In this document: in pieces, positions 10,958-62,654 of the stretch
Numbering within the stretch: position 1 is the stretch's first letter
How the letters are laid out: every line of letters starts with the position of its first letter
Source of the DNA: an uncultured Bacilli bacterium
GTDB taxonomy: Bacteria > Bacillota_I > Bacilli_A > RF39 > UBA660
Assembly (NCBI GenBank): GCA_944358735.1
Contig: CALVRT010000081.1
Span: forward strand, 1 to 62,654
Direction: 5' to 3'
DNA: 62,654 nt
Position numbers and translations under genes: made by a program
The notes under the pieces: model-generated
What the model saw: only the letters and a program-made list of their open reading frames with translations
What the model was told of the DNA's origin: nothing
Databases searched by the model: none

Positions 10958-10981
10958 AAAAAAAAACACTGAAATTTCAGT
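10958..10981 (-). terminator. intrinsic terminator after rnhC
   Basis: Minus strand reads ACTGAAATTTCAGT, then g, then T9. Confidence 0.75.
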
Positions 10982-16186: not shown

Positions 16187-16355
16187 AAAAAAATGTCTAA
16201 AAGTGCGCCTTTTAACGATAAAACCGGGCTCACCAGGTGGGCATCACATTATATATTTTAGGATTCTTATAATATAAGCCTTCAACACCATATATAAATT
16301 AGATTCCCGAATCGTTATTTGTAGGTTTTTCATAATCGGCTAACATCTTTTAGAC
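16187..16355 (-). ncRNA. stand-alone structured small RNA of about 169 nt; candidate 6S-like RNA
   Basis: It has its own consensus promoter. The 5' GUCUAAAAG pairs with the 3' CUUUUAGAC, which is directly followed by U7. There is no ORF or RBS. Extended imperfect end-to-end pairing occurs (GCC/GGC, CGAU/AUCG, AAAACC/GGUUUU). Confidence 0.55.
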
Positions 16356-16361
16356 AATTAA

Positions 16362-22929: not shown

Positions 22930-23988
22930 TCACTCCTCTATTAATTTTTTAAATATTTTATATAAATTTAATAATGATTCTTTATTAACATATTCATTTG
23001 GACAGTGCGGATTATCCCCGATTGGATTAGTTAAAACTGTTGGAATATTTTTATCCGCAAAGTAAATCGCATCAGATGTTGCAACATTTTTAATTATCTC
23101 TGGTTTATAACCAAGGATTTCTTTACTAATTTTTAAATATTTCTCGATATATTTATTATTAATGTCGGTGGCAAAAGCCAAGCCTTTTTCGATAACTGTT
23201 ACTTTAATATTAGCATTTATTTTGTTTATTTCATCTAATATTTCGTCAGTATTACATTCAGGTACATACCGAATATCTAAATACATAACAGCCTCATCAG
23301 GAACCTGATTTAAAGCTTTACCACCTTCTAATTTTGACAAATTAATCGAAGTTTGAAAATCATCATCGTTTTTTGGTAACGGATATTTTTTAAGTAGTTT
23401 TTCATAACAACTATATAACTCGTTTATCGCATTAATACCATTATAGGGCTGGGACGCATGCGCAGATGTGGTTTTAACTTCAAGTTTTAATTGAAATAAA
23501 CCTTTTTGTTTATAAATGACTTGAAAATTTTTACCCCCATCAGGGACAACCGCTAAATTAATATTAGGATATAAATTAACAAGCTCTCGTGCGCAGTGGC
23601 CGGCAATTTCTTCATCACTAGTTAAAAACAAAGCTATTTTTTTTTTTTTTTTTAAGTGCTTAAATAATGTTAAAATAACAGCAACTGACCCTTTCATATC
23701 AACCGCTCCCCGGCCATAGACATTTTTTTCATCTTCGGAAAATCTATAAGTATCAGCTGGCACAACATCGACATGAGCACAGAAAACAATATCATAAGCC
23801 GTATCTTTGGTATTAGCAATTACCAAAGATGAATGACCTTCAAATTCATAATCTTTTATAAATAAGTTTTTAGGTAATCTAGTTTTTACTTCATCTAATA
23901 ATTTTTTATTCATCTGTTTATCAGAAGAAACACTAGGACAGTTCATAAGTATTTTTAATTCTTCAAGTATTTCCTTTAAGTTATCCAT
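22930..23988 (-). CDS. M20-family metallopeptidase / deacylase (ArgE/DapE-like)
   Basis: CAHVDVVP, GRGAVDMKG and SDEEIAG metal-ligand motifs. Confidence 0.8.
   Translation of the reverse strand: MDNLKEILEELKILMNCPSVSSDKQMNKKLLDEVKTRLPKNLFIKDYEFEGHSSLVIANTKDTAYDIVFCAHVDVVPADTYRFSEDEKNVYGRGAVDMKGSVAVILTLFKHLKKKKKIALFLTSDEEIAGHCARELVNLYPNINLAVVPDGGKNFQVIYKQKGLFQLKLEVKTTSAHASQPYNGINAINELYSCYEKLLKKYPLPKNDDDFQTSINLSKLEGGKALNQVPDEAVMYLDIRYVPECNTDEILDEINKINANIKVTVIEKGLAFATDINNKYIEKYLKISKEILGYKPEIIKNVATSDAIYFADKNIPTVLTNPIGDNPHCPNEYVNKESLLNLYKIFKKLIEE
23637..23653. repeat. 17-nt homopolymer (A17 on the coding strand) inside the M20 gene
   Basis: It encodes L-K-K-K-K-K-I. Confidence 0.95.
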
Positions 23989-24265: not shown

Positions 24266-24895
24266 CTAATTAGTTACTTTGATTAACCTTTTCCTAACTG
24301 TTTTATTACCTGTTTCATCAGTAGCTGTATAAGTTATAACATAATCCCCAGTTTCTTCTTTTAATGTACCTTCATAGCTCAAATCATAATCACCTGAATT
24401 ATCAGTAACTTCTATCCCTTCTTTTAAATCATAATTATTAACTTCACTTTTAGTGATTGTTACCGTTGTTGGTAAAGTTATTTTCGGAGCTTCTCTATCA
24501 ACAATTTTAACTACCCTACTAACAGAAGTTACAAGTTTAGAGTTATCTGGGTCACTAACACTATAAAAAATACGGTAAGTCGTAAACTTACTAGTATCAA
24601 CTTCACTTCTTACCCGGTTATCTTCATAAACTGATGTTTGAATTAAATTAGAAATGTTTCTCCCATCTTTTGTATAAGCAGACGCTCCAAGTTCCTCATA
24701 CTCACCATTCATTTCGGTATAAACAACATAGCCCCCATTTAAAATAATTTCTGGATTATCACTTTCTTCATAAGTGACATAGTTAGGTTTTTCTTCGGGA
24801 ATTAAGTTAATAACAATCATGCATACAATTGCCGAAACTATTACAAGAAAAACAATGGCGATTAATTTAGGCAATACTATTCCTGATTGATTCAT
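24266..24895 (-). CDS. membrane-anchored protein with a C-terminal Ig-like (DUF5011-type) domain
   Basis: N-terminal TM helix. C-terminus DREAPKITL...GIEVTDNSGDYDLSY...GDYVITYTATDETGN resembles bacterial Ig-like/DUF5011 repeats. Its start overlaps the stop of the pilin-like gene. Confidence 0.55.
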   Translation of the reverse strand: MNQSGIVLPKLIAIVFLVIVSAIVCMIVINLIPEEKPNYVTYEESDNPEIILNGGYVVYTEMNGEYEELGASAYTKDGRNISNLIQTSVYEDNRVRSEVDTSKFTTYRIFYSVSDPDNSKLVTSVSRVVKIVDREAPKITLPTTVTITKSEVNNYDLKEGIEVTDNSGDYDLSYEGTLKEETGDYVITYTATDETGNKTVRKRLIKVTN

Positions 24896-25329
24896 TAATT
24901 AGTTTCCCCTCCAGCATCATCAACAGTAGCTTTATACTCAAAATGATTACCCTTTTTAGTAACCGTTACATAGCTTAAGGTAGGATTAAACGGCTCGCCG
25001 GTTTTTGGATTGTCAACTTCTGTCGGTAAATAGCCACCTTTTTGTAAAGTATCTAATGTTACGCAGCACGGGTTAACTGGTTTTTGGTCACCCGCATCAC
25101 AAGGTGAAGTGTTACATTTTGCACCCACTTGATTTAACTTTTCTAAATTCTCTGCATAATAGTTTTTAGCCGCCTTAACTAGCTGATTGATTTGGGTATT
25201 ATATAAATCTTCATCACTTTTATTAATACTTCTATCAATAAGCGGAACGGCAATCATCGAAATAATAGCTAAAATAACAATAACACCTAATAATTCAACT
25301 AATGTAAATCCTTTTTTCATATCTTTCAC
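24895..25329 (-). CDS. prepilin-type N-terminal cleavage/methylation-domain protein (type IV pilin / ComGC-like pseudopilin)
   Basis: MKDMKKG/FTLVELLGVIVILAIISMIAVP shows the canonical G/FTLxE prepilin motif. Confidence 0.8.
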   Translation of the reverse strand: MKDMKKGFTLVELLGVIVILAIISMIAVPLIDRSINKSDEDLYNTQINQLVKAAKNYYAENLEKLNQVGAKCNTSPCDAGDQKPVNPCCVTLDTLQKGGYLPTEVDNPKTGEPFNPTLSYVTVTKKGNHFEYKATVDDAGGETN

Positions 25330-28064: not shown

Positions 28065-28204
28065 GCCATCCTCCTAAAACCACCTATATTTATTACATTA
28101 TAAAATATTTTTAATGAAAAAGCAAGTAATTATAATAAAATATTTAAGTAGAAATGTGTTTGTAATTTAAAAGCTAATGAGCTTCACTACTCATCCTGAT
28201 TTAT

Positions 28205-28257
28205 AAAAAGGCAAAAAATCTATAAAATCGACAATCTTACCATAAGATAAGATTGTC
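28205..28257 (-). terminator. intrinsic terminator after the large pilin-like gene
   Basis: GACAATCTTA (28230-28239) and TAAGATTGTC (28248-28257) form a 10-bp stem, followed by a T-rich tail on the minus strand. Confidence 0.7.
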
Positions 28258-28269
28258 AAAATCGTTTTG

Positions 28270-29475
28270 TTATCTAATATAACATTTACTACCAGAAACA
28301 TAAAAATTAGAATCAGTACAATAATAATAACCACGATGATAAGTAGCAGAAGTTGTAAAAGTTTTTCTACAAGTTGCATAACAATTATAACTATAGCCTT
28401 CAGGTTTTCCAGAGCAACTAGAAGCACAGCCATTAAAAGTACAACTATATCCCTGGGCTTTATAATAAGCTTGATTATCAGTCCAAGAAGCTGCTTGCCC
28501 ATCAGGGCCACAAACATTTCGACCAGTAACGGAAACAGTATTTGTTTTCCTACATGTCGTACCACTTAAAGTATAACCACTTGGACAAGTATAATAAGGA
28601 CTAGAATATGAAGCTGATTTTTCAACTATCATCGTAAGTGAAGCTGTTTTTGTATTTGTACCATCGGTAATTATACCAACTAATATTCCGTTATTTGCAA
28701 AATAAACATTAGTGTTGCCATTAACACTTGATTGCAAAGAATCATCTTTTTGATATGAACATCTTATATTTCCATATAATCCACACTGGTTTTGATAATT
28801 TATTTGCCCATAGCGGCTTGACTGCAATAAACTTGGAATTTGTAATAATTTTGTTGTTACTTCTTTATCTCCACTAGATTCTTTATTTAAAGAATTTGTT
28901 ACACTAACTTTTATTGTATGACTTGTATTTTGAGTTAATCCTGTAAAAGTATAAGAACAACTTTCTTCTTTACATACACCGTCTTTTACTGGCATTAATA
29001 TAGGTGTTTCATCATCTATTTGAAAATTATAGAAACTAACTAGACTTTCTTCTTCTTTAACCTTAACATCAACACTAATAGAATTTGTCGTACTAGATGT
29101 ATCTAGTGTGATAATCGGCGGAGTATTATCAACAAGTGCATATTCTCGGCATTCTGAACTTTCTGAATAATTATAATAATAAGCCTCATCTTTTTTTGTT
29201 ATAATTACACACCCTTTATTATTACTTTCAGAGACATAGCCTTCCTTTTCTAAAATATCAATACTAATGCCACCTTTTTCATCCGGTAGTTTTTCTTTAT
29301 TATCATTTCCCCAATTTTTAGTCGCCAACTCTAATGATTCTTTAGACATTTTTTCTGTTTCTTCTTTTCCTTTGTTTATTTGATTTACTACTAAAGGGGC
29401 GACTATTAAAATTATCGCTGATAAAATTAAAACTGTCCCCAAAAGTTCAATTAAAGTAAAACCACTTTTTTTCAT
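28270..29475 (-). CDS. large prepilin-type N-terminal-domain protein with a Cys/Tyr-rich C-terminal module
   Basis: MKKSG/FTLIELLGTVLILSAIILIVAP prepilin motif. The last 110 or so aa carry 16 Cys, with YYTCPSGYTLSGTTC and YYYCTDSNFYVSGSKC as related bracket motifs. Start at ATG 29475 (AGGTGAT upstream). Confidence 0.75.
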   Translation of the reverse strand: MKKSGFTLIELLGTVLILSAIILIVAPLVVNQINKGKEETEKMSKESLELATKNWGNDNKEKLPDEKGGISIDILEKEGYVSESNNKGCVIITKKDEAYYYNYSESSECREYALVDNTPPIITLDTSSTTNSISVDVKVKEEESLVSFYNFQIDDETPILMPVKDGVCKEESCSYTFTGLTQNTSHTIKVSVTNSLNKESSGDKEVTTKLLQIPSLLQSSRYGQINYQNQCGLYGNIRCSYQKDDSLQSSVNGNTNVYFANNGILVGIITDGTNTKTASLTMIVEKSASYSSPYYTCPSGYTLSGTTCRKTNTVSVTGRNVCGPDGQAASWTDNQAYYKAQGYSCTFNGCASSCSGKPEGYSYNCYATCRKTFTTSATYHRGYYYCTDSNFYVSGSKCYIR

Positions 29476-29570
29476 TAAAATCACCTATTCTATATTGATT
29501 ATAACATATATTTTGTTATAAAATAATAATAACTGCAAAACTTTACACAAATTTTAATATAGGTGATAAC

Positions 29571-30783: not shown

Positions 30784-30890
30784 TTTAGTACCTCCTTTTA
30801 AATCTAAGACTCGCCATTAAGGTAGTTTAATACTTTTAAACCTTTTTTGTGCGGTTGTAGAGTTGAGGCTCTACACAATTAATGATTTTA
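30784..30890 (-). promoter_or_regulatory. rplU 5' leader with a conserved-looking hairpin (possible L21 leader)
   Basis: TGTAGAG-ttgagg-CTCTACA hairpin at 30856-30875, in the position where Firmicutes carry the L21 autoregulatory leader. I cannot verify the motif. Confidence 0.3.
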
Positions 30891-31614: not shown

Positions 31615-32172
31615 TTAAATATAGTCTTTATAATTTAAAAACTTCCCTTCTTTTTGAAAGTACATATTTAAAGTATTTTCTTTAGCTTCGCCAACTGTAT
31701 CACCAGCTTTAACATAATCGTATAAACTAATATTAGTGGTATCTAAATTACTATACCATACTTCAACATTGTCAGGGCGCTGGATAACAATGGTATTGCC
31801 ATAACCTTCTTTTTCACCGGCAAAAATAACTAGGCCTCGCGAAATAGCAGGAATTGCATAATTATCAGCAAGAGTTAAAGATACTCCATCACCATTTTTT
31901 TTACTTTTGTCATATTCAAGTTTAACACTAGAAACAACTTCTGTTTCTTCTTCATTTACAAAAGGCAAAGATGACCCAAAATATTTTTCGTAAATATCAT
32001 TTATCTTGGCAAAACTAAAATTATTTTGAAAAACAGTTTTATAAACTTTTTCTTGTAAGCTAGGATTTGCTTTTAAAACAATTAAACTAACTAAACAAAT
32101 TATAATTAAAAACAAAAAACGATTTAAATATTTAACATACCTAGGCCTTTCCACCTTTTTCTTTTTAGACAT
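31615..32172 (-). CDS. spoIVFA: SpoIVFA-like protein (degenerate LytM/M23 domain)
   Basis: N-terminal basic region plus TM helix. The C-terminal M23-like fold (GLVIFAGEKEGYGNTIVIQ ... VKAGDTVGEA) lacks metal ligands. Synteny supports the call. Confidence 0.65.
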   Translation of the reverse strand: MSKKKKVERPRYVKYLNRFLFLIIICLVSLIVLKANPSLQEKVYKTVFQNNFSFAKINDIYEKYFGSSLPFVNEEETEVVSSVKLEYDKSKKNGDGVSLTLADNYAIPAISRGLVIFAGEKEGYGNTIVIQRPDNVEVWYSNLDTTNISLYDYVKAGDTVGEAKENTLNMYFQKEGKFLNYKDYI

Positions 32173-38751: not shown

Positions 38752-39012
38752 ATGTTTAAAAAGAACTGTATGTGTCAAATGCCAAACAATTGCTGTGAAC
38801 CTAACTGTCCAATTGTTGAACCGGCAATTAACAAATGTGTAGAAAGAGAATTCTGTCATGAGGTTAATCATATTTGCCCAATTCATACTCATGTGATTAA
38901 TAAACACATTTATAATCATACATACACTCCGCAGTATTCTTGTTCTGAAGAAAATCAAGTTATAAACAATGACCCAGGGTGCTGTGGTGGTTTTAACAAT
39001 AATGGCTTTTAA
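38752..39012 (+). CDS. cotD: CotD-like Cys/His-rich spore coat protein
   Basis: CPIVEPAINKCVEREFCHEVNHICPIHTHVINKHIYNHTYTP follows the IVxP...V.HI.P.HT.V.N.H..H.Y.P pattern I recall for CotD. Confidence 0.6.
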   Translation: MFKKNCMCQMPNNCCEPNCPIVEPAINKCVEREFCHEVNHICPIHTHVINKHIYNHTYTPQYSCSEENQVINNDPGCCGGFNNNGF

Positions 39013-39027
39013 GCCATTTTTTTCTTG

Positions 39028-40335
39028 TTAAAAAGGTATTTTAAAATTACCATCTTTAAATCTTTTCATCATTATTTTCATTTGCTCAAACTGTTTTAAT
39101 AAGCGGTTTACTTCTTCAACACTTCGGCCACTACCAGCAGCAATTCTTCTTTTACGGCTGGCTTTTAAGATATCTGGATTTCTTCTTTCTTTAGGTGTCA
39201 TTGATAAAATAATTGCTTCAATATGGGCCATTTGTTTAGGGTCAATATTAACATTATTAAGACCCATTTTTTTAGCTCCAGGAAGCATTTTTAAAATGTT
39301 TTCAAGTGGTCCAAGTTTTTTTATTTGGTTTAACTGGACAAGAAAATCCTCTAAATCAAACTTCCCTTTTTGCATTTTTTCAGCAGCTTTTAATGCTTCT
39401 TCATCATCCATTAAACCTTCAGCTTTTTCAATCATTCCCATCAAGTCGCCCATATCGAGAATTCTATTAGCCATTCTTTCTGGATAAAATTCTTCTAACC
39501 CATCCATCTTTTCACTAACACCGATAAATTTAATTGGGATATTGGTTAAGTGTCTAATTGATAAAGCAGCCCCACCTTTAGTATCACCATCTAATTTAGT
39601 TAAAATCGCGCCTGTTAAAGGTAGTTTTTCATTAAAGCCAGTAATAACATTAACGGCATCTTGTCCAGTCATACTATCAACTACTAATAATATTTCATTA
39701 GGATTGACCGTTTCGTTAATGTTTTGAAGTTCTTCCATTAACGCTTCGTCAATATGTAGGCGTCCTGCCGTATCAATTAAAACATAATTATATCCTTTTT
39801 CTTTAGCGTAATTAACTGCGTTATTAGCTATTTCTACAGGATTACTTTTACCTTCACTATAAACCTCAATATTAAGTTCTTTTCCTAATTGTTTTAACTG
39901 ATCGATAGCGGCTGGACGGTAAACATCACAAGCAACAAGCAATGGTTTTAAACCATATTTTTTTCTAACTAATCTAGCAAGTTTCCCCGCCGTAGTTGTT
40001 TTACCACTACCTTGAAGACCCGCCATCATTACAATAGTCATTGGTTTTACTACTATTAAAGGCTCATCTTCTTTACCTAGTAAATCAACTAGTTCATCTT
40101 TAACAATTTTAACAAAAACTTCGCCCGGTTTTAAACTTTTAGCAACTTCTTCACCCAATGCTTTTTCTTTTACATTGTTAATAAATTCTTTAACTACTTT
40201 ATAGTTAACATCAGCCTCTAGTAAAGCAAGCCTTATTTCTCTTGTAACTTCACCAATATTATCTTCAGTTATTTTTCCATAACCTTTTATTTTATTTAAA
40301 ACATTTTATAATGTATCCCCTAAATTTTCAAACAT
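39028..40335 (-). CDS. ffh: signal recognition particle GTPase Ffh, interrupted by an in-frame TAA at codon 10
   Basis: GLQGSGKTTT, DTAGR and TKLDGD G-domain motifs plus a Met-rich M domain. The N domain continues upstream of the track ORF to ATG 40335 (aaaggtgatagaATG), with TAA at 40308..40306. Confidence 0.9.
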
Positions 40336-40454
40336 TCTATCACCTTTTCTATAATTTAATAACTGCCTATAATTATATCATTTATTTTATATAAAATCAC
40401 TAGTTTTATTAAATTAATAGTTATTTCAATTATAATATATCTATTAAATAATAT

Positions 40455-40964: not shown

Positions 40965-41908
40965 ATGAACAGAAGAAGATTAACAAGACGTTCAAGAAAA
41001 AAATAAGGAAAGTAATAGCAATTTCAGCTATTTGTTTGCTAGGTTTAATGACAGCTGGTTATGCGGCCATGCAAACTAATTTAAATATTAAAGCTAAAGG
41101 CAATGTATTACAAGGCGAAATTGATATAACTGATAACATCGTTGCTAATGGTGATGGACTGTATATTGACACTTACGAAGAAGGAAGATATGTCTATAAA
41201 GGAACAAATCCCAATAATTATATCGAATTTAATAACGAATTATGGCGTATTCTTGCCAAAGAGGCTGATGGAACATATAAAATAGTAAGAGATGAATTAT
41301 TACCAAACCAAGCTTGGCATACAGCAAAAAATTGTTCTACTGCATATAACACTACAATTAAAGACGGTAGCACTTATATAATTGAAAACATAACTTATTT
41401 AGCACCAGACATAGGTGCGGGCTGCATGGTTTGGACAGACCCCGCAACTTTAAATACATATTTAAATGGAGAATACTATAACAATTTAAATCAAACAGCA
41501 AAAAATAGTATCACATCCCACAGCTGGAAAATAGGAGGGTACAGCAATAATAACAGGAACGATTTAAGGAAAATAATTACCGATGAAGGCAGTAGTACTT
41601 GGAATGGTAATATTGGTTTAATAAATACTAGCGATTATTTAAGAGCTAATAGTGACATAATAAATTGTAATGCCAATAATGATTATTCAGTGTGTAAAAA
41701 TACAAATTGGCTATATAATAATAATGATTGGTGGACAATAAATACTTATTACTATTTTGGCATTACATATATAACATCTGATGGAGATATTACTTATACT
41801 GGTTCAGTAGTCACTAGTATTGCACCTCGCCCTACTCTCTATTTATCTTCTGATATTACTTTAACTGGAAAAGGTACTAAAGAAGAACCATATCATATAA
41901 AAAACTAA
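40965..41908 (+). CDS. secreted / membrane-anchored protein whose start and body are in different frames (A7 tract at 40997-41003)
   Basis: AGGAGG 7 nt before ATG 40965 gives MNRRRLTRRSRKK-TAA. The -1 frame continues IRKVIAISAICLLGLMTAGYAAMQTNLNIKAKGNV... to 41908. The track ORF (TTG 41036) begins inside the hydrophobic helix. Confidence 0.65.
40997..41003 (+). other. A AAA AAA slippery heptamer followed by a 0-frame TAA
   Basis: AGA AAA AAA TAA; a -1 shift reads AAA AAA ATA AGG. Confidence 0.8.
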
Positions 41909-50911: not shown

Positions 50912-50983
50912 ATGAATAACTTACAAGTGGTAATTGATGCCGGCCATGGTGGCCCCAGCGTATCCCGAATATTATTTTATTAA
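50912..50983 (+). pseudogene. 5' stub of an Amidase_3 (N-acetylmuramoyl-L-alanine amidase) gene, truncated by the mobile-element insertion
   Basis: aagggggaaatatATG, then MNNLQVVIDAGHGGP. After this it diverges (SVSRILFY-stop) exactly where AT-rich element DNA begins. VIDxGHGG is the N-terminal zinc-ligand motif of Amidase_3. Confidence 0.65.
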
Positions 50984-52584
50984 TTTGAAAAATTCCATAC
51001 TATATTTATATTTCTTGTATTTGTTTCTTTATCATAAGAACCAATATAAATTTTATCAATAAATTCATCAACTATAACTTTATTTAGTTTCGTAATTTTA
51101 TTATATTTTTTTAACACTTCAGATGTTTGCATTTTATTATCTTCAGTTTGCTTATAATGTATAATTTCTTCGTCTAACTTTTTTTCTCTATTTATCATTG
51201 TATCAATTTCTTTTAAATAATCAGAAGATAACATTTTAAACATATCATCAGTTATTATTCCTTTTACTTTATCCTCATATAATTTTCTATAATAACTTTT
51301 ATTTTCTTCTATTTTTTTATTAATGCTATTTTTTTCATTTTCTAATATTTTTATTTGTTCAAGATTAATATTATTAATTTTCAGCTTTTTATATTGTTCT
51401 TGTAACAGCTCTTTATCATAATATTTCTTTAATAAATCATTGATAGCATCTAGTAATATTTTTTCCATATCTTGCAATTTTATTGATTTTTTATTTTGAC
51501 ATGTATGCGTTTGTTTTGCTCCTTTACATTGTAAATATATTCTTCTTCCATTAGGAGAACTTTTAACTTTATATGTATTTCTTATAAAAGCTTTTTGGCA
51601 TTCACTACAATATACTTTTCTACTCAAATAATGAATTTCTCCGCATCTTGTTGGGCATTCATGAGAATTCAGTCTTTTTTGTACAGTATTCCACACTTCT
51701 TTGGTAATAATTGGCTCGTGAGCATTTTCAGTTCTACACCATAGCCTTTTAGGTACTTTTTTAGATTTATGAACTTTATAACTTAAGGAAGTCTTTTTTC
51801 CTTGTACTAAATTCCCAATATAAACTTCATTTTTTAATATAGTTGCGATGGTATCCTTTGTCCACACAACTTTATCATAATCACATGTTCCACAAACAAA
51901 ATTACTACCACACTGCTTTTTATATTGAGCAGGAGTTGGAATGTTTAAGTTATTTAAATGTTCACAAATTTTATAATAGCCAAGACCACTTACATATAAT
52001 TCAAATATTTTTTTTACTACTTCAGCCGCTACTGGATCAATTACCAATTTATGTTTATCATTTTCACTTCTTTGATAACCATAAGGAGCAAAACTTCCCA
52101 TAAACAAACCATCATCACGTTTGTTTTTCAAAGATTTTTTTATATTTTGCGATAAATCTTCTAAATACCATTCATTTATAAGCCCATTAATCTGTCTTGA
52201 TTTTTTATTGGCTTCATTATTTGTATCAGCATTATCAATAATACTAACAAATCTTACGCCCCACTCTATAAACTTATTATGTAAATATCTTTCTATAACT
52301 TCCATATCTCTTGAAAATCTTGATTGACTTTTACATAATACCAAGTTAATTCTACCTTTTTCACAATCTTTCATAAGACGTTCAAACTCTGGCCTATAAG
52401 TACCGGCTCCTGAAAAATCATCATCAGAATATATATCTACTACATTCCAACCATTTTGAGCAGCATACTTTACACACATACTTTTTTGATTTACTATACT
52501 ATTACTATCATCATTTTTATTTGCTTTAAATCTATCCTCATCAGATAGTCTTGTATATACACCCACCTTCGTTATCATAGCCAT
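50980..52584 (-). CDS. large serine recombinase (integrase of the element)
   Basis: N-terminal resolvase domain (VGVYTRLSDED, catalytic Ser), recombinase domain, a zinc-ribbon-like Cys cluster (CPTRCG...CSEC) and a C-terminal coiled coil. Confidence 0.9.
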   Translation of the reverse strand: MAMITKVGVYTRLSDEDRFKANKNDDSNSIVNQKSMCVKYAAQNGWNVVDIYSDDDFSGAGTYRPEFERLMKDCEKGRINLVLCKSQSRFSRDMEVIERYLHNKFIEWGVRFVSIIDNADTNNEANKKSRQINGLINEWYLEDLSQNIKKSLKNKRDDGLFMGSFAPYGYQRSENDKHKLVIDPVAAEVVKKIFELYVSGLGYYKICEHLNNLNIPTPAQYKKQCGSNFVCGTCDYDKVVWTKDTIATILKNEVYIGNLVQGKKTSLSYKVHKSKKVPKRLWCRTENAHEPIITKEVWNTVQKRLNSHECPTRCGEIHYLSRKVYCSECQKAFIRNTYKVKSSPNGRRIYLQCKGAKQTHTCQNKKSIKLQDMEKILLDAINDLLKKYYDKELLQEQYKKLKINNINLEQIKILENEKNSINKKIEENKSYYRKLYEDKVKGIITDDMFKMLSSDYLKEIDTMINREKKLDEEIIHYKQTEDNKMQTSEVLKKYNKITKLNKVIVDEFIDKIYIGSYDKETNTRNINIVWNFSN

Positions 52585-52944: not shown

Positions 52945-54921
52945 TTACATGCCAAATCCTTTTATATGAATTTCTACTGTTTTGTTATCATCATTTATTT
53001 GTAAATGAAATTTATTGTCAGAAATTATTTTTTTTAAGAAAAAAACATCACTATTTTTTAGTAATGTTTTAAACTTTATTATCATATATGTTTTATTATT
53101 ACATTCATCATATTCAACATTTTCTATACTATTATCAAATTTATTTATAATTAATCTTTTTATATCATTAAATATATTTTGTTCTTGTGATTGTTTTTGT
53201 TTAATTAAATCTTTTTGACTTCTATTCAATCTATTTTTATTAAAATTTAACAAAGTATTCTTTTGCGTAAAATCAATATCTTCAACTGTAAAATAGTTAT
53301 AACTTAAATCTAATAAACTTTTTTCCTCTCTATCTATTTTACCTTCTTTATAACATTTAAATTTATTATATAAAATTGTATCTCTTATTATTGGATACCC
53401 TACTGTTGGAAATATAATCATTTTATAATGAAGCTGTTTAACTTCATCTGGCGTAAGTAAATCACGTGCCATTAGTGAAGTTGAATTATTTCCACTATAA
53501 TCCATAATACTAAGAGATTGAGAAATAGAAGAAGATTCAATTGTTTTTTTACCTAGTCTTTTACTTATTGCCTCTGCTGTATCTTGAGTATTTGTTTTTA
53601 AATAGACAAGCCCACAGTTATCCAAAATTATTTGAGCAACTTCTTTTCCATAAACATTATCAAGCTGACTAAAAGATTGTATAAAAAAATGAAATCTCAT
53701 TCCTCTACTTCTAGCAACAGAAACCAATGCCTCTATATCGGCAAGTGGCGGACAATTAGCAAATTCATCTAAAATAAAATCTATTTGAACAGGTAATTTT
53801 TTATCTTCGTGTTTATTAGCTAATTTTACCAACTCTTTGTACAAAAGACCAACAATAATTGAAACTAAGGTATAATATGTTTTATCTTCATCCGGAACTA
53901 TTATATAAAATGCAACCGGTTCTTTACCTAATATATCAAAATCAAAATCACTACTACTAGTAACATTAGCAACGTTTATATCACCAAATATAGACATCTT
54001 CTCGCCAAAAACAGCGGTTATACTTTTATATGTATTTTCACTTGCTGAAAGAATTGAAATTAAACTATCCTTTGATTTTAATCCATATTCTTTTGATTCA
54101 ATATAGCCTTTAAATTTATCAAAATTTTTATCAGCCATTGATGAGTTTTGAAATTGTTTAATGTTTGACATTGTTATTTGCTCACGTTTTATTTTCTTAT
54201 CTTTATATTCTTCCAAAAACAAACCAATTAATCCTTCTAGTAGTTGCCTTGCTGAATTGTTCCAAAAAGGATCTTTCGGGTTTTCTTTTTCTTTCATTAC
54301 CATTTCAGATAAAGAAACTATTAATCTATTTGTTTCTGCATAATGACTCATTGCCATATTTTTATAATGCTTTTTTAAATTCTTATCTATTTCATTTTTA
54401 TATTTTTCGGCATTGTTAAGGTAATTTTCATATTCTAAGATTATAGGCTCTAAAATATTAATTCGATTTGACTTTTCTGGATTTCTAAAATCTATTGTGA
54501 TAACCTTATAGCCCCTATCGTTAAACATCTTACTTGTACAAGAAAATATTTCTCCCTTGGGGTCTGTTATGAAAACACTTCTTTTATTTATAGCCGAAGA
54601 TATGAATGCACACAAAGGAATTACTTGAGTAACAGATTTTCCAGAACCCGTTGAACCCAAATAAACCCAATGTGGTGTTTCATTATCAAACCAACCATTA
54701 TTTAATTTTTTATCAAAATATATTGGAAATCCAACTTTGCGAATGTTAGAAATTTTTTCTTTAGTAAAATATTTATTTATTTCTGATTCAGTTGCAAATC
54801 TTGCACTACCATATTCGTTGCTATTCTTTATTTTATGTTTAAATATAATTGGCTCTATATACATAAAAACAATAATAAATAAAATAATTAAAAGCAATAA
54901 AACAAAAAGCGATAAACTCAT
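52945..54921 (-). CDS. type IV secretion coupling protein (VirD4/TraG family)
   Basis: N-terminal TM helix, Walker A GSTGSGKS, Walker B-like FILDEFAN. Confidence 0.85.
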   Translation of the reverse strand: MSLSLFVLLLLIILFIIVFMYIEPIIFKHKIKNSNEYGSARFATESEINKYFTKEKISNIRKVGFPIYFDKKLNNGWFDNETPHWVYLGSTGSGKSVTQVIPLCAFISSAINKRSVFITDPKGEIFSCTSKMFNDRGYKVITIDFRNPEKSNRINILEPIILEYENYLNNAEKYKNEIDKNLKKHYKNMAMSHYAETNRLIVSLSEMVMKEKENPKDPFWNNSARQLLEGLIGLFLEEYKDKKIKREQITMSNIKQFQNSSMADKNFDKFKGYIESKEYGLKSKDSLISILSASENTYKSITAVFGEKMSIFGDINVANVTSSSDFDFDILGKEPVAFYIIVPDEDKTYYTLVSIIVGLLYKELVKLANKHEDKKLPVQIDFILDEFANCPPLADIEALVSVARSRGMRFHFFIQSFSQLDNVYGKEVAQIILDNCGLVYLKTNTQDTAEAISKRLGKKTIESSSISQSLSIMDYSGNNSTSLMARDLLTPDEVKQLHYKMIIFPTVGYPIIRDTILYNKFKCYKEGKIDREEKSLLDLSYNYFTVEDIDFTQKNTLLNFNKNRLNRSQKDLIKQKQSQEQNIFNDIKRLIINKFDNSIENVEYDECNNKTYMIIKFKTLLKNSDVFFLKKIISDNKFHLQINDDNKTVEIHIKGFGM

Positions 54922-55713: not shown

Positions 55714-57003
55714 TTACTTGTTTTTCTCGTCATAATTAAATAATTTACTAAACTCTTGCGATGCTTCTTCCATTTCATAGTTTATGTTTTTTATTGCTTT
55801 TTGTATATTATAAATATTTTTATAATTCTTATTATTTGAAGATAACGCTGTTCTAATAATATCTTTTTTTGAATATTTTTTATTTTGTTTGTAATTATTT
55901 AAAATTATTTCTTTAAAAATATCATTTCCATTTATTTTTAGTTGTTTTATTTGCCCACTATAATATTTTTGTGTAGAATTAACAATCGCATTTAAAATAT
56001 AGTTATCCAAATATTTTTTCTTCATTTCAGTATATGAAAAATTTAAATTCGAACTTTTTATTTTATTATTTTTACCTAAATCAGTAATATAATTGTTAAG
56101 CATTTTTATACTATCATTAAAATTCTTTTTAGAAATTTTTAAATTGAAATCAATTTTAAATAAATCATTTTTGATTTCTTTTGTTAATTTTTTTATTTCA
56201 TCTTCATTAATAGAATTATATTTTATTTTAGCTCTCATTCCATATTCGTTTTCGTATAACATTTTGCCTAAAGTTAAAATTTTTTCTTCCAAAATGATAT
56301 TGTTTTTATTTTTCAAAATAAAATTATAAGAATTTGAATCAAAATATTTTTTAAACTCTTCAATATCTTTATTAATGTTTATAGACATTGGTTTGAATTT
56401 TGAATTTCTCTCAATAGAAAGACAAGTTTCTTGTTTTAGAAAATTAATAACATTTTGCGGGATTTTGGCCTGCCTTCTATACTTTAACTTTCCGTCTTTT
56501 GCTCTAGTGTTTGGACAACGTTCCATAAATGCAATATGAAAGTGAGGATGTTTAGTATTAGTATGTAATGAAAAAACATAAAACATTTTTTTTGCATCTT
56601 CAAACCCCATTTTTTTAAACACTTTAGGAAGAATCTCTTTTGCTAATTTTGTTTCTAAATCATCATAAGAAATATTACTATCTATATACTTTTTATCAAA
56701 CGATAAAACAATTTGCCATAAATTAGAATTATTGAATTGTTTGCTTATATATTTTTTGATTCTTGTTTTTTCTTCTGGAGCTGCTTTTTTACCATTTTCC
56801 ATTACTAAATTTATATCATCATGTTTATTAATTTTCCCAGTAAAATAATCAACTAAATTTAATGCTCGTTTTTTATCATCAGAAAAATAATCAATTATGT
56901 GTTCGTTATATTTTTTATCTTTATCAATATTTTTCTTTACTCTATCAGGATTATTTATTGCAAGTTTATAATTAGTTCTAACAATAACTTTTGGCTTATT
57001 CAT
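55714..57003 (-). CDS. putative conjugative relaxase
   Basis: The histidine-triad-like motif SLHTNTKHPHFHIAF follows an N-terminal Tyr-containing region. It lies next to the coupling protein. Confidence 0.6.
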   Translation of the reverse strand: MNKPKVIVRTNYKLAINNPDRVKKNIDKDKKYNEHIIDYFSDDKKRALNLVDYFTGKINKHDDINLVMENGKKAAPEEKTRIKKYISKQFNNSNLWQIVLSFDKKYIDSNISYDDLETKLAKEILPKVFKKMGFEDAKKMFYVFSLHTNTKHPHFHIAFMERCPNTRAKDGKLKYRRQAKIPQNVINFLKQETCLSIERNSKFKPMSININKDIEEFKKYFDSNSYNFILKNKNNIILEEKILTLGKMLYENEYGMRAKIKYNSINEDEIKKLTKEIKNDLFKIDFNLKISKKNFNDSIKMLNNYITDLGKNNKIKSSNLNFSYTEMKKKYLDNYILNAIVNSTQKYYSGQIKQLKINGNDIFKEIILNNYKQNKKYSKKDIIRTALSSNNKNYKNIYNIQKAIKNINYEMEEASQEFSKLFNYDEKNK

Positions 57004-59663: not shown

Positions 59664-60509
59664 TTATGTATTAAAATTAATTAAATTCATTCCATCTACT
59701 TTTTTCTTATCATTTGTCTGTACTTCAAAATGTAAATGAGGTCCTGTAGAATAACCTGTAGTTCCTACACTAGCAAGTTGTTTTCCTTGACTAACATTCA
59801 TACCTTTTTTTACTTTTGAAGAATTTGGATACAAATGTCCATAAATAACATAGTAAGTTGCACTTGGTACATCGCATCTTAATTTTATATAATTACCATA
59901 GTCCCCATTTTTATCAATCGAATTTGATAAGTATTTAAAACTAGCGACTTCTATAATACCATCACAAACAGCATATACCGGAGTCTCATTACTTGCTGCT
60001 AAATCCCACGCTCCATGAACATCAGATTTTCCATATACAATTCTTTCTTGCATAAAATAACTAGTTACTGTTACTTTATTAAAATCAATAGGCTTTGAAA
60101 ATGGTTTTGAACTTAAATTATTATCTTGCTCATTAATATTATTACAAAGTGACATATTATTGTATTTTTTCATATCACAAACTTCATCTAATATTTTCAT
60201 TTGTTTATTTATTTTATCTAAATTGTCACTATAAATTTCATCAAATGAAAAAGAACTATCTTCATTGTAAAACTTTACTATTCTGGATAAAGTTACATAG
60301 CCATCGTTATTTTTTATATTTTTAGAAACAACAGGTAAATATAAATTGGAATATTTCGAATTATTTTTTACATATTCATCTTCTATATCACTATTAGTCG
60401 TATCAGTATTAAAAAAATTTAAAACACTTAAACAGGCAGTTAAAATTACAAAAAATATACAAATACAAACACCGCCAATTCCAGCACCTATAGCTAATAC
60501 TTTATTCAC
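59664..60509 (-). CDS. membrane-anchored M23 (LytM) peptidoglycan hydrolase of the conjugation apparatus
   Basis: N-terminal TM helix; HGAWDL and GTTGYSTGPHLHFEV zinc-ligand motifs. Confidence 0.85.
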   Translation of the reverse strand: MNKVLAIGAGIGGVCICIFFVILTACLSVLNFFNTDTTNSDIEDEYVKNNSKYSNLYLPVVSKNIKNNDGYVTLSRIVKFYNEDSSFSFDEIYSDNLDKINKQMKILDEVCDMKKYNNMSLCNNINEQDNNLSSKPFSKPIDFNKVTVTSYFMQERIVYGKSDVHGAWDLAASNETPVYAVCDGIIEVASFKYLSNSIDKNGDYGNYIKLRCDVPSATYYVIYGHLYPNSSKVKKGMNVSQGKQLASVGTTGYSTGPHLHFEVQTNDKKKVDGMNLINFNT

Positions 60510-60799
60510 ATTTCTACATCCTTATTTTTTGAAAAAGAAAATTCATTTATCATTCTAGATATATTAAGTGAATGATATAATTGATTAAAATTATCATCAT
60601 AGTTTAAATCTTTATTCAATACTAAATTATAAAGATCTTGTGCAACTTCTTCTAATAAATTTCTAGGATTACTTTTCAACATTCGCATTATATCTTGATA
60701 CGCTTCATCTTTATCTTCATATATTTCACCAATAAAATTCTTTCTATATTGTCCAAAATAATCACATACATTATTTGCAAGTTCAGTTATTTTCATCAT
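60506..60799 (-). CDS. hypothetical protein of the element
   Basis: Overlaps both neighbours (4 nt and 17 nt), suggesting an operon. Confidence 0.45.
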   Translation of the reverse strand: MMKITELANNVCDYFGQYRKNFIGEIYEDKDEAYQDIMRMLKSNPRNLLEEVAQDLYNLVLNKDLNYDDNFNQLYHSLNISRMINEFSFSKNKDVEM

Positions 60800-62654
60800 A
60801 TACTTCTCCCATCATTTTTCTTTCTAAATTAGTTGCTTGAATTAAAATTCTAAGTCTTTTTTTAGTATCAATATTTAGTAAAAATTCGCCTCTTTTAGCA
60901 AGTCCTAAAAAATGTTTTTGGGTATCAGTTAAAGGATTTTGTTTAAATAGTTCCAAATAAGCAAGTAAATCATCTTCTTTAAGCATTCCTACCATTTGAT
61001 ACTGACAATTATTAAATATAGCAGTAGAATGTCTTAATATCTGATTAGAACCAACAAAGTCTTTGATTGATTGTGTGGCCACCACTAAAGAACCATAATA
61101 TTTTCTTAATCTACGAGCGAGTTGTCCAAAATTTCTTAACACTTCAAAATTATTTTCGTCAATAAATAAATGAAATTCATCCGCAACTATCATTATTCTT
61201 TTTCTATCTTCAATTTTCAATTTATCATTATTAATTTTATTAGCGACTATATTATTGTTTAAATATGTTAATAGATTTAATGTTTGGGTATTAATTAATC
61301 TTCTGTTTTCACTATATAAAAGTTCCTGAAGATTAAAGGCAATTAAATCATTATCTAAATTTATATTTGTATAACCGTCAAACAAATATGAATCAGTTCC
61401 AGTTAAAAATCTTGAAAGCAGTATATCTAATTGTTCCACTATCCTTCTTTTTTCTTTACTTTCCAACTCTTTTTTATATTCCGGTAAATAGTTATATAAA
61501 TCCGTAAAAATTGGATAGTCTTCTGGCCTTAACGATTGTAAAGTGTTAATAGAAGTGTTTTTATAAATACCTTTTTTATTATATAATTTTTCTACTATTG
61601 CCAATAACATTATTAATTCTTTTTCAGTAATATCTTCAAAAGCAGATTTAAAAAAAGCCTCTAGGAAACCTAAATGTTTGGCTAGTGGGCAATCTGTTTC
61701 TCTAACGTCTGAATCCGATTCATCTTCATCACCTGAAATATATCTAATTTGTAGCGGATTTATAATTCCACCTTTTTTAGAATACAGGTCAATATATTCT
61801 CCACCATTGGCTTTAACTAATTTTTTGTATTCATTTTCTGCGTCAAAAATAAAGATTTTAGTTCCTCTAGCAAATTCATTAACAATTATTTTTTTCATTG
61901 TATAAGACTTACCACCACCAGTTGACGCTACTATCGCAATGTTATGTGATGTTCTAGAATCATTAATAATAAATGGGTCAAAAAAAGTTGGCAAGGATGT
62001 ATGAATATCAACACCTAACATATAACCGCTTGAGTCATTGTAGCAGTTTTTAGTAAATGGAAAACCAGCGCTTAAAGTAAGTGTTGGTAAATATATAGAA
62101 TAATCATCTAAAGTTCTAGTAGTCAGGTCATAACATTGCCATGTTTCCATTTGCCTTAATCTAGGTACATCTAATTTAATTTGAAAAGAATCAGCAATTC
62201 TTCTAAGTTCTCTTATCGTATTTTCCCTTGTTTTTTTATCTCCAATCACAATTAATATTAAAGCAACTTCTTTTATTTTTTCATCACCGTTTTTTATTTC
62301 ATTCATTAAAACCTGAAAATTTTCTTGTTGTCTATCTAATTCAGTCGCATCTGATAATTTTCTAGTAGTATTTCTATCACTTAATAAAAATTGATATTGT
62401 GAATTAACCCATTTAATTAGTTCATCTTGTGAAATGGTATCTTTAACAGTAAGACAAGCCCTTACTTTTGGAACATTAAATATATCTTCAAAAAACATCT
62501 CATCAACAAATGGTGGAATGTTTTTTATAGTTACCATTTGTAATTCTTTCTCATCAAATCTTAAATTACTAGTTTTTTCATTTAAACTCATTGGGCATAT
62601 TAAATTAGGCAAATCACACCAACTCAATTGATCTAAAGTATTATATGTTAGATA
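60783..62654 (-). CDS. VirB4/TcpF-like conjugation ATPase, 5'-partial
   Basis: Walker A ASTGGGKSYTMKK and Walker B MIVADEFHLF. The reading frame stays open upstream of the TTG at 62627 to the window edge. Confidence 0.85.
   Translation of the reverse strand, partial: YLTYNTLDQLSWCDLPNLICPMSLNEKTSNLRFDEKELQMVTIKNIPPFVDEMFFEDIFNVPKVRACLTVKDTISQDELIKWVNSQYQFLLSDRNTTRKLSDATELDRQQENFQVLMNEIKNGDEKIKEVALILIVIGDKKTRENTIRELRRIADSFQIKLDVPRLRQMETWQCYDLTTRTLDDYSIYLPTLTLSAGFPFTKNCYNDSSGYMLGVDIHTSLPTFFDPFIINDSRTSHNIAIVASTGGGKSYTMKKIIVNEFARGTKIFIFDAENEYKKLVKANGGEYIDLYSKKGGIINPLQIRYISGDEDESDSDVRETDCPLAKHLGFLEAFFKSAFEDITEKELIMLLAIVEKLYNKKGIYKNTSINTLQSLRPEDYPIFTDLYNYLPEYKKELESKEKRRIVEQLDILLSRFLTGTDSYLFDGYTNINLDNDLIAFNLQELLYSENRRLINTQTLNLLTYLNNNIVANKINNDKLKIEDRKRIMIVADEFHLFIDENNFEVLRNFGQLARRLRKYYGSLVVATQSIKDFVGSNQILRHSTAIFNNCQYQMVGMLKEDDLLAYLELFKQNPLTDTQKHFLGLAKRGEFLLNIDTKKRLRILIQATNLERKMMGEVYDENN

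Follow-up and report, generated by a model that had tools for sequence, protein, structure and literature searches.

An in-frame TAA at codon 10 of ffh in a contig of an uncultured gut Bacilli is probably a local error of the record

Stop codons at conserved Gln positions are known from the ciliate nuclear code (code 6), in which UAA and UAG are read as Gln, and from some recoded gut phages, in which UAG is read as Gln. In these systems the stop recurs in-frame in many genes, it is not the usual terminator, and a suppressor tRNA is present. To our knowledge, no bacterium reassigns UAA. Wrong gene sequences are also known to enter databases by another route: MAG contigs contain local assembly errors without any read support, and 13 such errors were found in one curated 1.13-Mb genome (Chen et al. 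2020, Genome Res 30:315, PMC7111523). Here we describe an ffh gene (for the SRP GTPase Ffh/SRP54) that carries TAA as its tenth codon, in a metagenome-derived contig of 62,654 bp that was analysed whole (the window). The gene shares with the recoded systems a stop at a conserved Gln position; here, however, the stop is found just once, TAA still serves as the main terminator, and the codon is CAA in relatives. We consider that this internal TAA is probably a local sequence or assembly error. It resembles the local errors of MAG contigs (PMC7111523) in being a short stretch that is unlike every related genome and corrupts a coding gene, and in being isolated in otherwise accurate sequence, with more than one site on the contig. 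The likeness has limits: those errors were defined by absent perfect read support, whereas ours are judged from sequence comparison alone, and ours are pure substitutions that leave the length unchanged and are not tied to a particular assembler or platform.

The ffh gene occupies 39028..40335 on the minus strand (435 codons including the internal stop), as assigned from its translation, Pfam domains and full-length homology. It starts with an ATG at 40335..40333 (local reading aaaggtgatagaATG), and its translation begins with MFENLGDTL, is interrupted by TAA at 40308..40306 and continues in-frame with NVLNKIKGYGKITEDNIGEVTREIRLALLEADV. Downstream of this stop the frame (NVLNKIKGYGKITEDNIGEVTREIRLALLEADVNYKVV) is unbroken to the terminal TAA at 39030..39028; the internal TAA is present at these coordinates and the frame is not misread. 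With codon 10 read as Q, three Pfam domains are found above their gathering scores, SRP54_N (PF02881, residues 5-82), SRP54 GTPase (PF00448, 100-293) and SRP_SPB (PF02978, 325-423), in the order required for membership of Ffh/SRP54. This is the N, G, M order of ordinary bacterial Ffh (e.g. those of B. subtilis and E. coli), over 435 aa. Read in the same way, the product is colinear with 435-aa proteins at 88-100% identity over 100% of the query; one of the full-length matches, named signal recognition particle protein, is from Firmicutes bacterium CAG:822, the closest named relative. The initial annotation had called the gene ffh from the letters of the DNA, and the three domains and the full-length 435-aa homologues bear this out. 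The F-x-x-L-x-D-R-L-Q and ALLEADV motifs of ordinary Ffh are present in the relatives; in this record only, codons 8, 10 and 12 encode Thr, stop and Val, versus Arg, Gln and Ala in relatives.

An uninterrupted reading frame for the whole Ffh protein is thus absent from the record, given the TAA at codon 10. The first ATG, GTG or TTG after the internal stop is the TTG at 40158 (codon 60), which opens the longest uninterrupted ORF (39028..40158, minus strand, 376 aa). This ORF is the product on record for the contig, and it is without Ffh residues 1-59, as had been anticipated when the stop was noticed (a loss of about 59 residues of the N domain, to which Pfam assigns residues 5-82). In a collection of about 15 billion proteins, the exact truncated 376-aa product (P0121) forms a single-member cluster and comes from one NCBI contig only, which is as long as the window (62,654 bp); the window is therefore one whole deposited contig.

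The neighborhood of ffh (ftsA-ftsZ, a small HTH gene, ffh and a radical-SAM gene) is conserved, and is the same as that of the single ffh of relatives. Upstream of the gene lies an extended -10-like element, TGATATAAT (40372..40380, minus strand), identical in relatives. This much of the promoter that had been proposed upstream of ffh stands, but a consensus promoter scan did not rise above background, given the high AT content of the DNA. Between ffh and a convergent 86-aa gene lies a hairpin (39001..39018, plus strand) that is terminator-like by scan, with a 7-pair stem followed by a T run, and would serve the 86-aa gene as a terminator-like site.

Eight contigs of the same species from other assemblies (L001-L008) share 98.4-99.8% nucleotide identity with the window at this locus. 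In the alignment all eight read AGA TTA CAA AAT GCT where the window reads ACA TTA TAA AAT GTT, which gives a patch of three private substitutions within 13 bp (40301..40313, minus strand): AGA>ACA at 40313 (R8T), CAA>TAA at 40308 (Q10*) and GCT>GTT at 40301 (A12V). No other position of ffh sets the window apart from all eight relatives, and the remaining 1,295 bases of the gene are without any private change. For example, the closest contig (L002) differs from the window at five positions in 3,091 bp, three of which are those of the patch; from residue 13 to residue 435, Ffh matches P0001, the protein of the closest relative, without a difference. All three changes alter the protein. Among the 120 closest homologues listed, D-R-L-Q is invariant, Gln10 included (120 out of 120), and R8T therefore removes an invariant Arg; position 12 is mostly Ala in the same set, with Val in two proteins and Ser in one. 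The initial annotation had placed the TAA at a Gln position, one transition away from CAA, and had proposed an alignment of ffh from close relatives as a check. Both statements agree with the homologues and with this alignment, in which codon 10 is CAA in eight out of eight same-species contigs (G on the plus strand). A scan of GTDB for the pattern of the patch matched only a wild-type copy in another species (L009); scans of JGI metagenomes gave no match for the mutant pattern, and none for a degenerate pattern that also matches the wild type.

To place the patch against the background divergence of the contig, private differences were counted at 31,759 window positions, each represented in four or more relatives that are at least 97% identical; additional same-species contigs were taken around rpsO, rplU, lspA and ftsZ. 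The window has 58 private differences over these positions (1.8 per kb). There are no private frameshifts in the 31.8 kb compared, and only one of the 58 differences creates a stop, namely that at codon 10 of ffh.

A second private patch is found in a gene encoding an M20 peptidase (22930..23988, assigned by Pfam): a run of 17 T on the plus strand (A17 in the coding sense; 23637..23653, the gene being on the minus strand). Four substitutions within 7 bp (23644, 23647, 23648 and 23650) replace the AAATACCAAGAAAAAAA found in nine out of nine relatives, and the region reads TTAAATACCAAGAAAAAAATAGC in these nine versus TTAAAAAAAAAAAAAAAAATAGC in the window. All four changes are to A in the coding sense; they leave the length unchanged, create the 17-base homopolymer and turn LNTKKK of the peptidase into LKKKKK. 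The longest A or T run in the relatives' loci (224 kb) is 9. Four substitutions to A that build a 17-mer, about twice as long as the longest homopolymer in the lineage, are hard to credit as natural mutation, and this patch is probably a second local error in the record.

The two patches also differ from the rest of the contig in the kind of change. Six of their seven changes are nonsynonymous, versus 13 nonsynonymous (mostly conservative) and 32 synonymous differences elsewhere (Fisher p = 0.007), where a few further differences are intergenic. In 20,000 trials that scattered 58 differences randomly over the 31,759 positions, 254 (1.3%) had a triplet within 13 bp, and two (0.01%) had at least two such triplets. 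The private differences outside the two patches look like ordinary evolution filtered by selection. Among them are runs of synonymous third-position differences spaced 3 nt apart (47623/47626 and 50018/50021/50024), in genes for CTP synthase and a protein of the phosphoglucomutase family; these look like short imported or recombined tracts, that is, real variation, in contrast with the two patches.

Could the stop be translated? If a suppressor tRNA or a changed release-factor set brought about decoding of UAA as Gln, or its efficient read-through, full-length Ffh would be made by design; the stop does coincide with a Gln codon, of which it is a one-transition variant (CAA to TAA), and the window, with its single tRNA gene, shows only part of the tRNA set of the genome. 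Such an adapted recoding is nevertheless hardly credible, since none of what it predicts (conservation of the stop, other in-frame TAAs, a reduced use of TAA as terminator) is seen. A reassigned UAA would be dropped as a regular terminator, but TAA is the commonest terminator in the window, ending 33 out of 51 ORFs of at least 150 aa (TGA ends 10 and TAG eight), and it also ends ffh itself, at the C-terminus of the homologues. Reassignment would also bring recurrent in-frame occurrences at conserved sense positions; the long ORFs elsewhere in the window are intact, and the ffh stop is the only one created among the 58 private differences. Programmed read-through or bypass would keep the stop and its context in orthologues, yet a stop at codon 10 is found in none of the eight same-species contigs and none of the 120 homologues listed. 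R8T and A12V, which accompany the stop, would be left unexplained. No tRNA with a UUA anticodon is encoded in the window, where only a tRNA-Thr(GGT) was found, and the read-through or suppression option of the initial annotation is not upheld. It is highly improbable that this ffh is instead a decaying pseudogene, redundant with an intact copy elsewhere in the genome, of which one contig is in view. Decay predicts further lesions in ffh, or relaxed constraint along it, and neither is observed, either in the 1,295 bases outside the patch or in residues 13-435; moreover, the gene sits in the conserved neighborhood of the relatives' single ffh. The second ffh that had been listed as an option is not on this contig: there is no paralogue, and no second SRP-type GTPase among the ORFs of the window. 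Recoding and a compensating second copy jointly have only a slight probability. As the predictions of recoding and of decay both fail, a single event over 13 bp is left as the alternative, which took place in the cell or while the record was being made.

An event in the cell would be a single complex (multi-nucleotide) mutation of codons 8-12 in the strain that dominates the sample, with no full-length Ffh made; the strain would survive by trace read-through of UAA, by a hop from the TTA of Leu9 to that of Leu13, by a second ffh elsewhere, or because loss of SRP is transiently tolerated. A small percentage of mutational events are multi-nucleotide, and some Firmicutes, e.g. Streptococcus mutans, remain viable when deficient in ffh. 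The bases are, after all, those of the deposited record, the contig is otherwise clean, and the rest of ffh is untouched, as expected of an event too recent for decay. For a de Bruijn assembler of short reads to write three variants within 13 bp, some reads must normally contain all three, and such a path usually needs read support; a 62-kb contig is unlikely to have very thin coverage. It also counts against an error that the record is not generally noisy, and that we can name no platform or step that yields G>C, C>T and C>T in ffh or four changes to A at 23.6 kb. We still regard a real lesion as unlikely and favor an error, because an allele of a normally essential gene that combines a nonsense codon 10 with the loss of invariant Arg8 would not be expected to rise to a majority; because rescue by reinitiation must use the TTG at codon 60, which removes some three quarters of the N domain (Pfam 5-82) along with ALLEADV (residues 37-43); and because the contig bears a second patch that selection has not filtered. 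That patch, with its all-to-A 17-mer, does not resemble natural mutation, and for a single lineage two events of this kind within 32 kb would be many. No second ffh is at hand on the contig to cover the loss. It is very unlikely that the three changes are real in the dominant strain and that this gut Bacilli has UAA at codon 10 of its only ffh, either living without SRP or making enough Ffh by read-through or by a 12-nt TTA-to-TTA hop.

Several natural sources of the patch were considered and rejected. A donor for gene conversion is not apparent: the 24-mer around the patch (with up to three mismatches) matches only itself in the window, and the mutant 15-mer is absent from 31 related loci. 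The changes create a quasi-palindrome (ACATT-ATAA-AATGT) with a stem of 5 bp, versus 3 bp in the wild type, but the hairpin is weak (-2.3 kcal/mol, z = -0.9) and not unusual for the composition, and the changes are spread over both arms and the loop, a pattern that one template switch leaves unexplained. Templating by a direct repeat from the start-codon region would account for two of the changes, which are toward that sequence, whereas the third is away from it (by eye). Deaminase-type mutagenesis fits poorly, to judge from the bases themselves, as C>T makes up only two of the seven patch changes, neither of them after T.

The TTA codon of Leu9 lies directly before the TAA, and an identical in-frame TTA (Leu13) follows 12 nt downstream (40294-40311, minus strand). 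Both are in the wild-type relatives, and the pair was therefore not created by the changes of the patch. Matched codons flanking a stop recall ribosome hopping (the bypass in T4 gene 60, and short hops in E. coli reporters); unlike in those systems, there is no sign of selection for bypass at ffh. Near-cognate read-through of UAA and a hop from Leu9 to Leu13 would be formal possibilities for low-level Ffh if the lesion were real.

If the patch is an error, as we think probable, the 13 bp at 40301-40313 would have been written with three wrong bases, one of which turns the CAA of Gln10 into TAA. On this reading an uncultured gut Bacilli of low GC content, close to Firmicutes bacterium CAG:822, would make an ordinary Ffh of 435 aa from an intact gene and translate by the standard bacterial code. 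That the patches are private, clustered and unfiltered by selection suggests an origin in sequencing or assembly and not in the cell. The anomaly is restricted to one assembly while the other assemblies of the same species agree; it bears no imprint of selection (six of seven changes nonsynonymous), and a similar anomaly, the T17 run, is found elsewhere in the record. A noisy long-read assembly was considered as the source and is unlikely given the absence of private frameshifts in 31.8 kb; what looks like an indel at 2061 stems from the alignment, and those at 10958 and 11001 are at or beyond the 3' end of the gene encoding RNase HII. The initial annotation had listed four options (a sequencing error, a very recent lesion rescued by reinitiation, a second ffh copy, and read-through or suppression) without choosing among them. 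Of these, sequencing error gains from the private TAA, from its place among three changes in 13 bp, from the altered invariant Arg8 and from the T17 patch. We conclude that the ffh stop is probably not a real feature: two defining features of a local record error were found, and none of those tested for reassignment or programmed read-through.

The window has a G+C content of about 29%, and its ORFs are long under the standard bacterial code. Besides the single tRNA gene (Thr-GGT), its RNA features include a 6S RNA (16190-16359, minus strand, 61 bits) downstream of pnp, and an L21 leader (30797-30866, minus strand) upstream of rplU, the Prp protease gene and rpmA. Type IV pilin-like N-terminal motifs (GFTLVELL and GFTLIELL) are observed in two genes on the minus strand, 24895-25329 and 28270-29484. 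The latter sits where high-identity alignments to relatives break off (about 28138-29568), the relatives having a 278-aa fn3-like gene or a 401-aa gene in its place. A gene at 41036-41908 (plus strand), with no Pfam match, encodes 290 aa in the window (TTG start) versus 317 aa in three relatives (L004, L005 and L012), whose sequences are longer than that of the window by 1 nt and by 4 nt at indels (40996 and 41752-41756). L001, the sole contig spanning both indel sites, has the form of the window (L002 ends at 41082). The gene either varies among strains or is frameshifted, or else the two forms differ in their start site. Synteny with all relatives stops at 50953. From there to the contig end (50954-62654) extends a block that resembles a conjugative element, with genes for a large serine recombinase (50980..52584), a VirD4/TraG-type coupling protein (52945..54921), a MobL/MobA-type relaxase (55714..57003) and a TraG/VirB4-like P-loop ATPase (60783..62627), and a 281-aa ORF (59664..60509) that is M23-type peptidase-like by eye. 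The block is probably an integrated ICE.

The contig should be flagged as carrying at least two probable local errors, and two of its products, the 376-aa 'Ffh' found in databases and the M20 peptidase with the poly-Lys run, should be regarded as probable artefacts. The case is of practical value in that a nonsense codon seen in a single record of an essential gene could be judged without reads, by means of independent assemblies of the same species. If the stop were true, it would bear on the dispensability of SRP in a gut bacterium with a reduced genome, or on read-through of UAA in bacteria.
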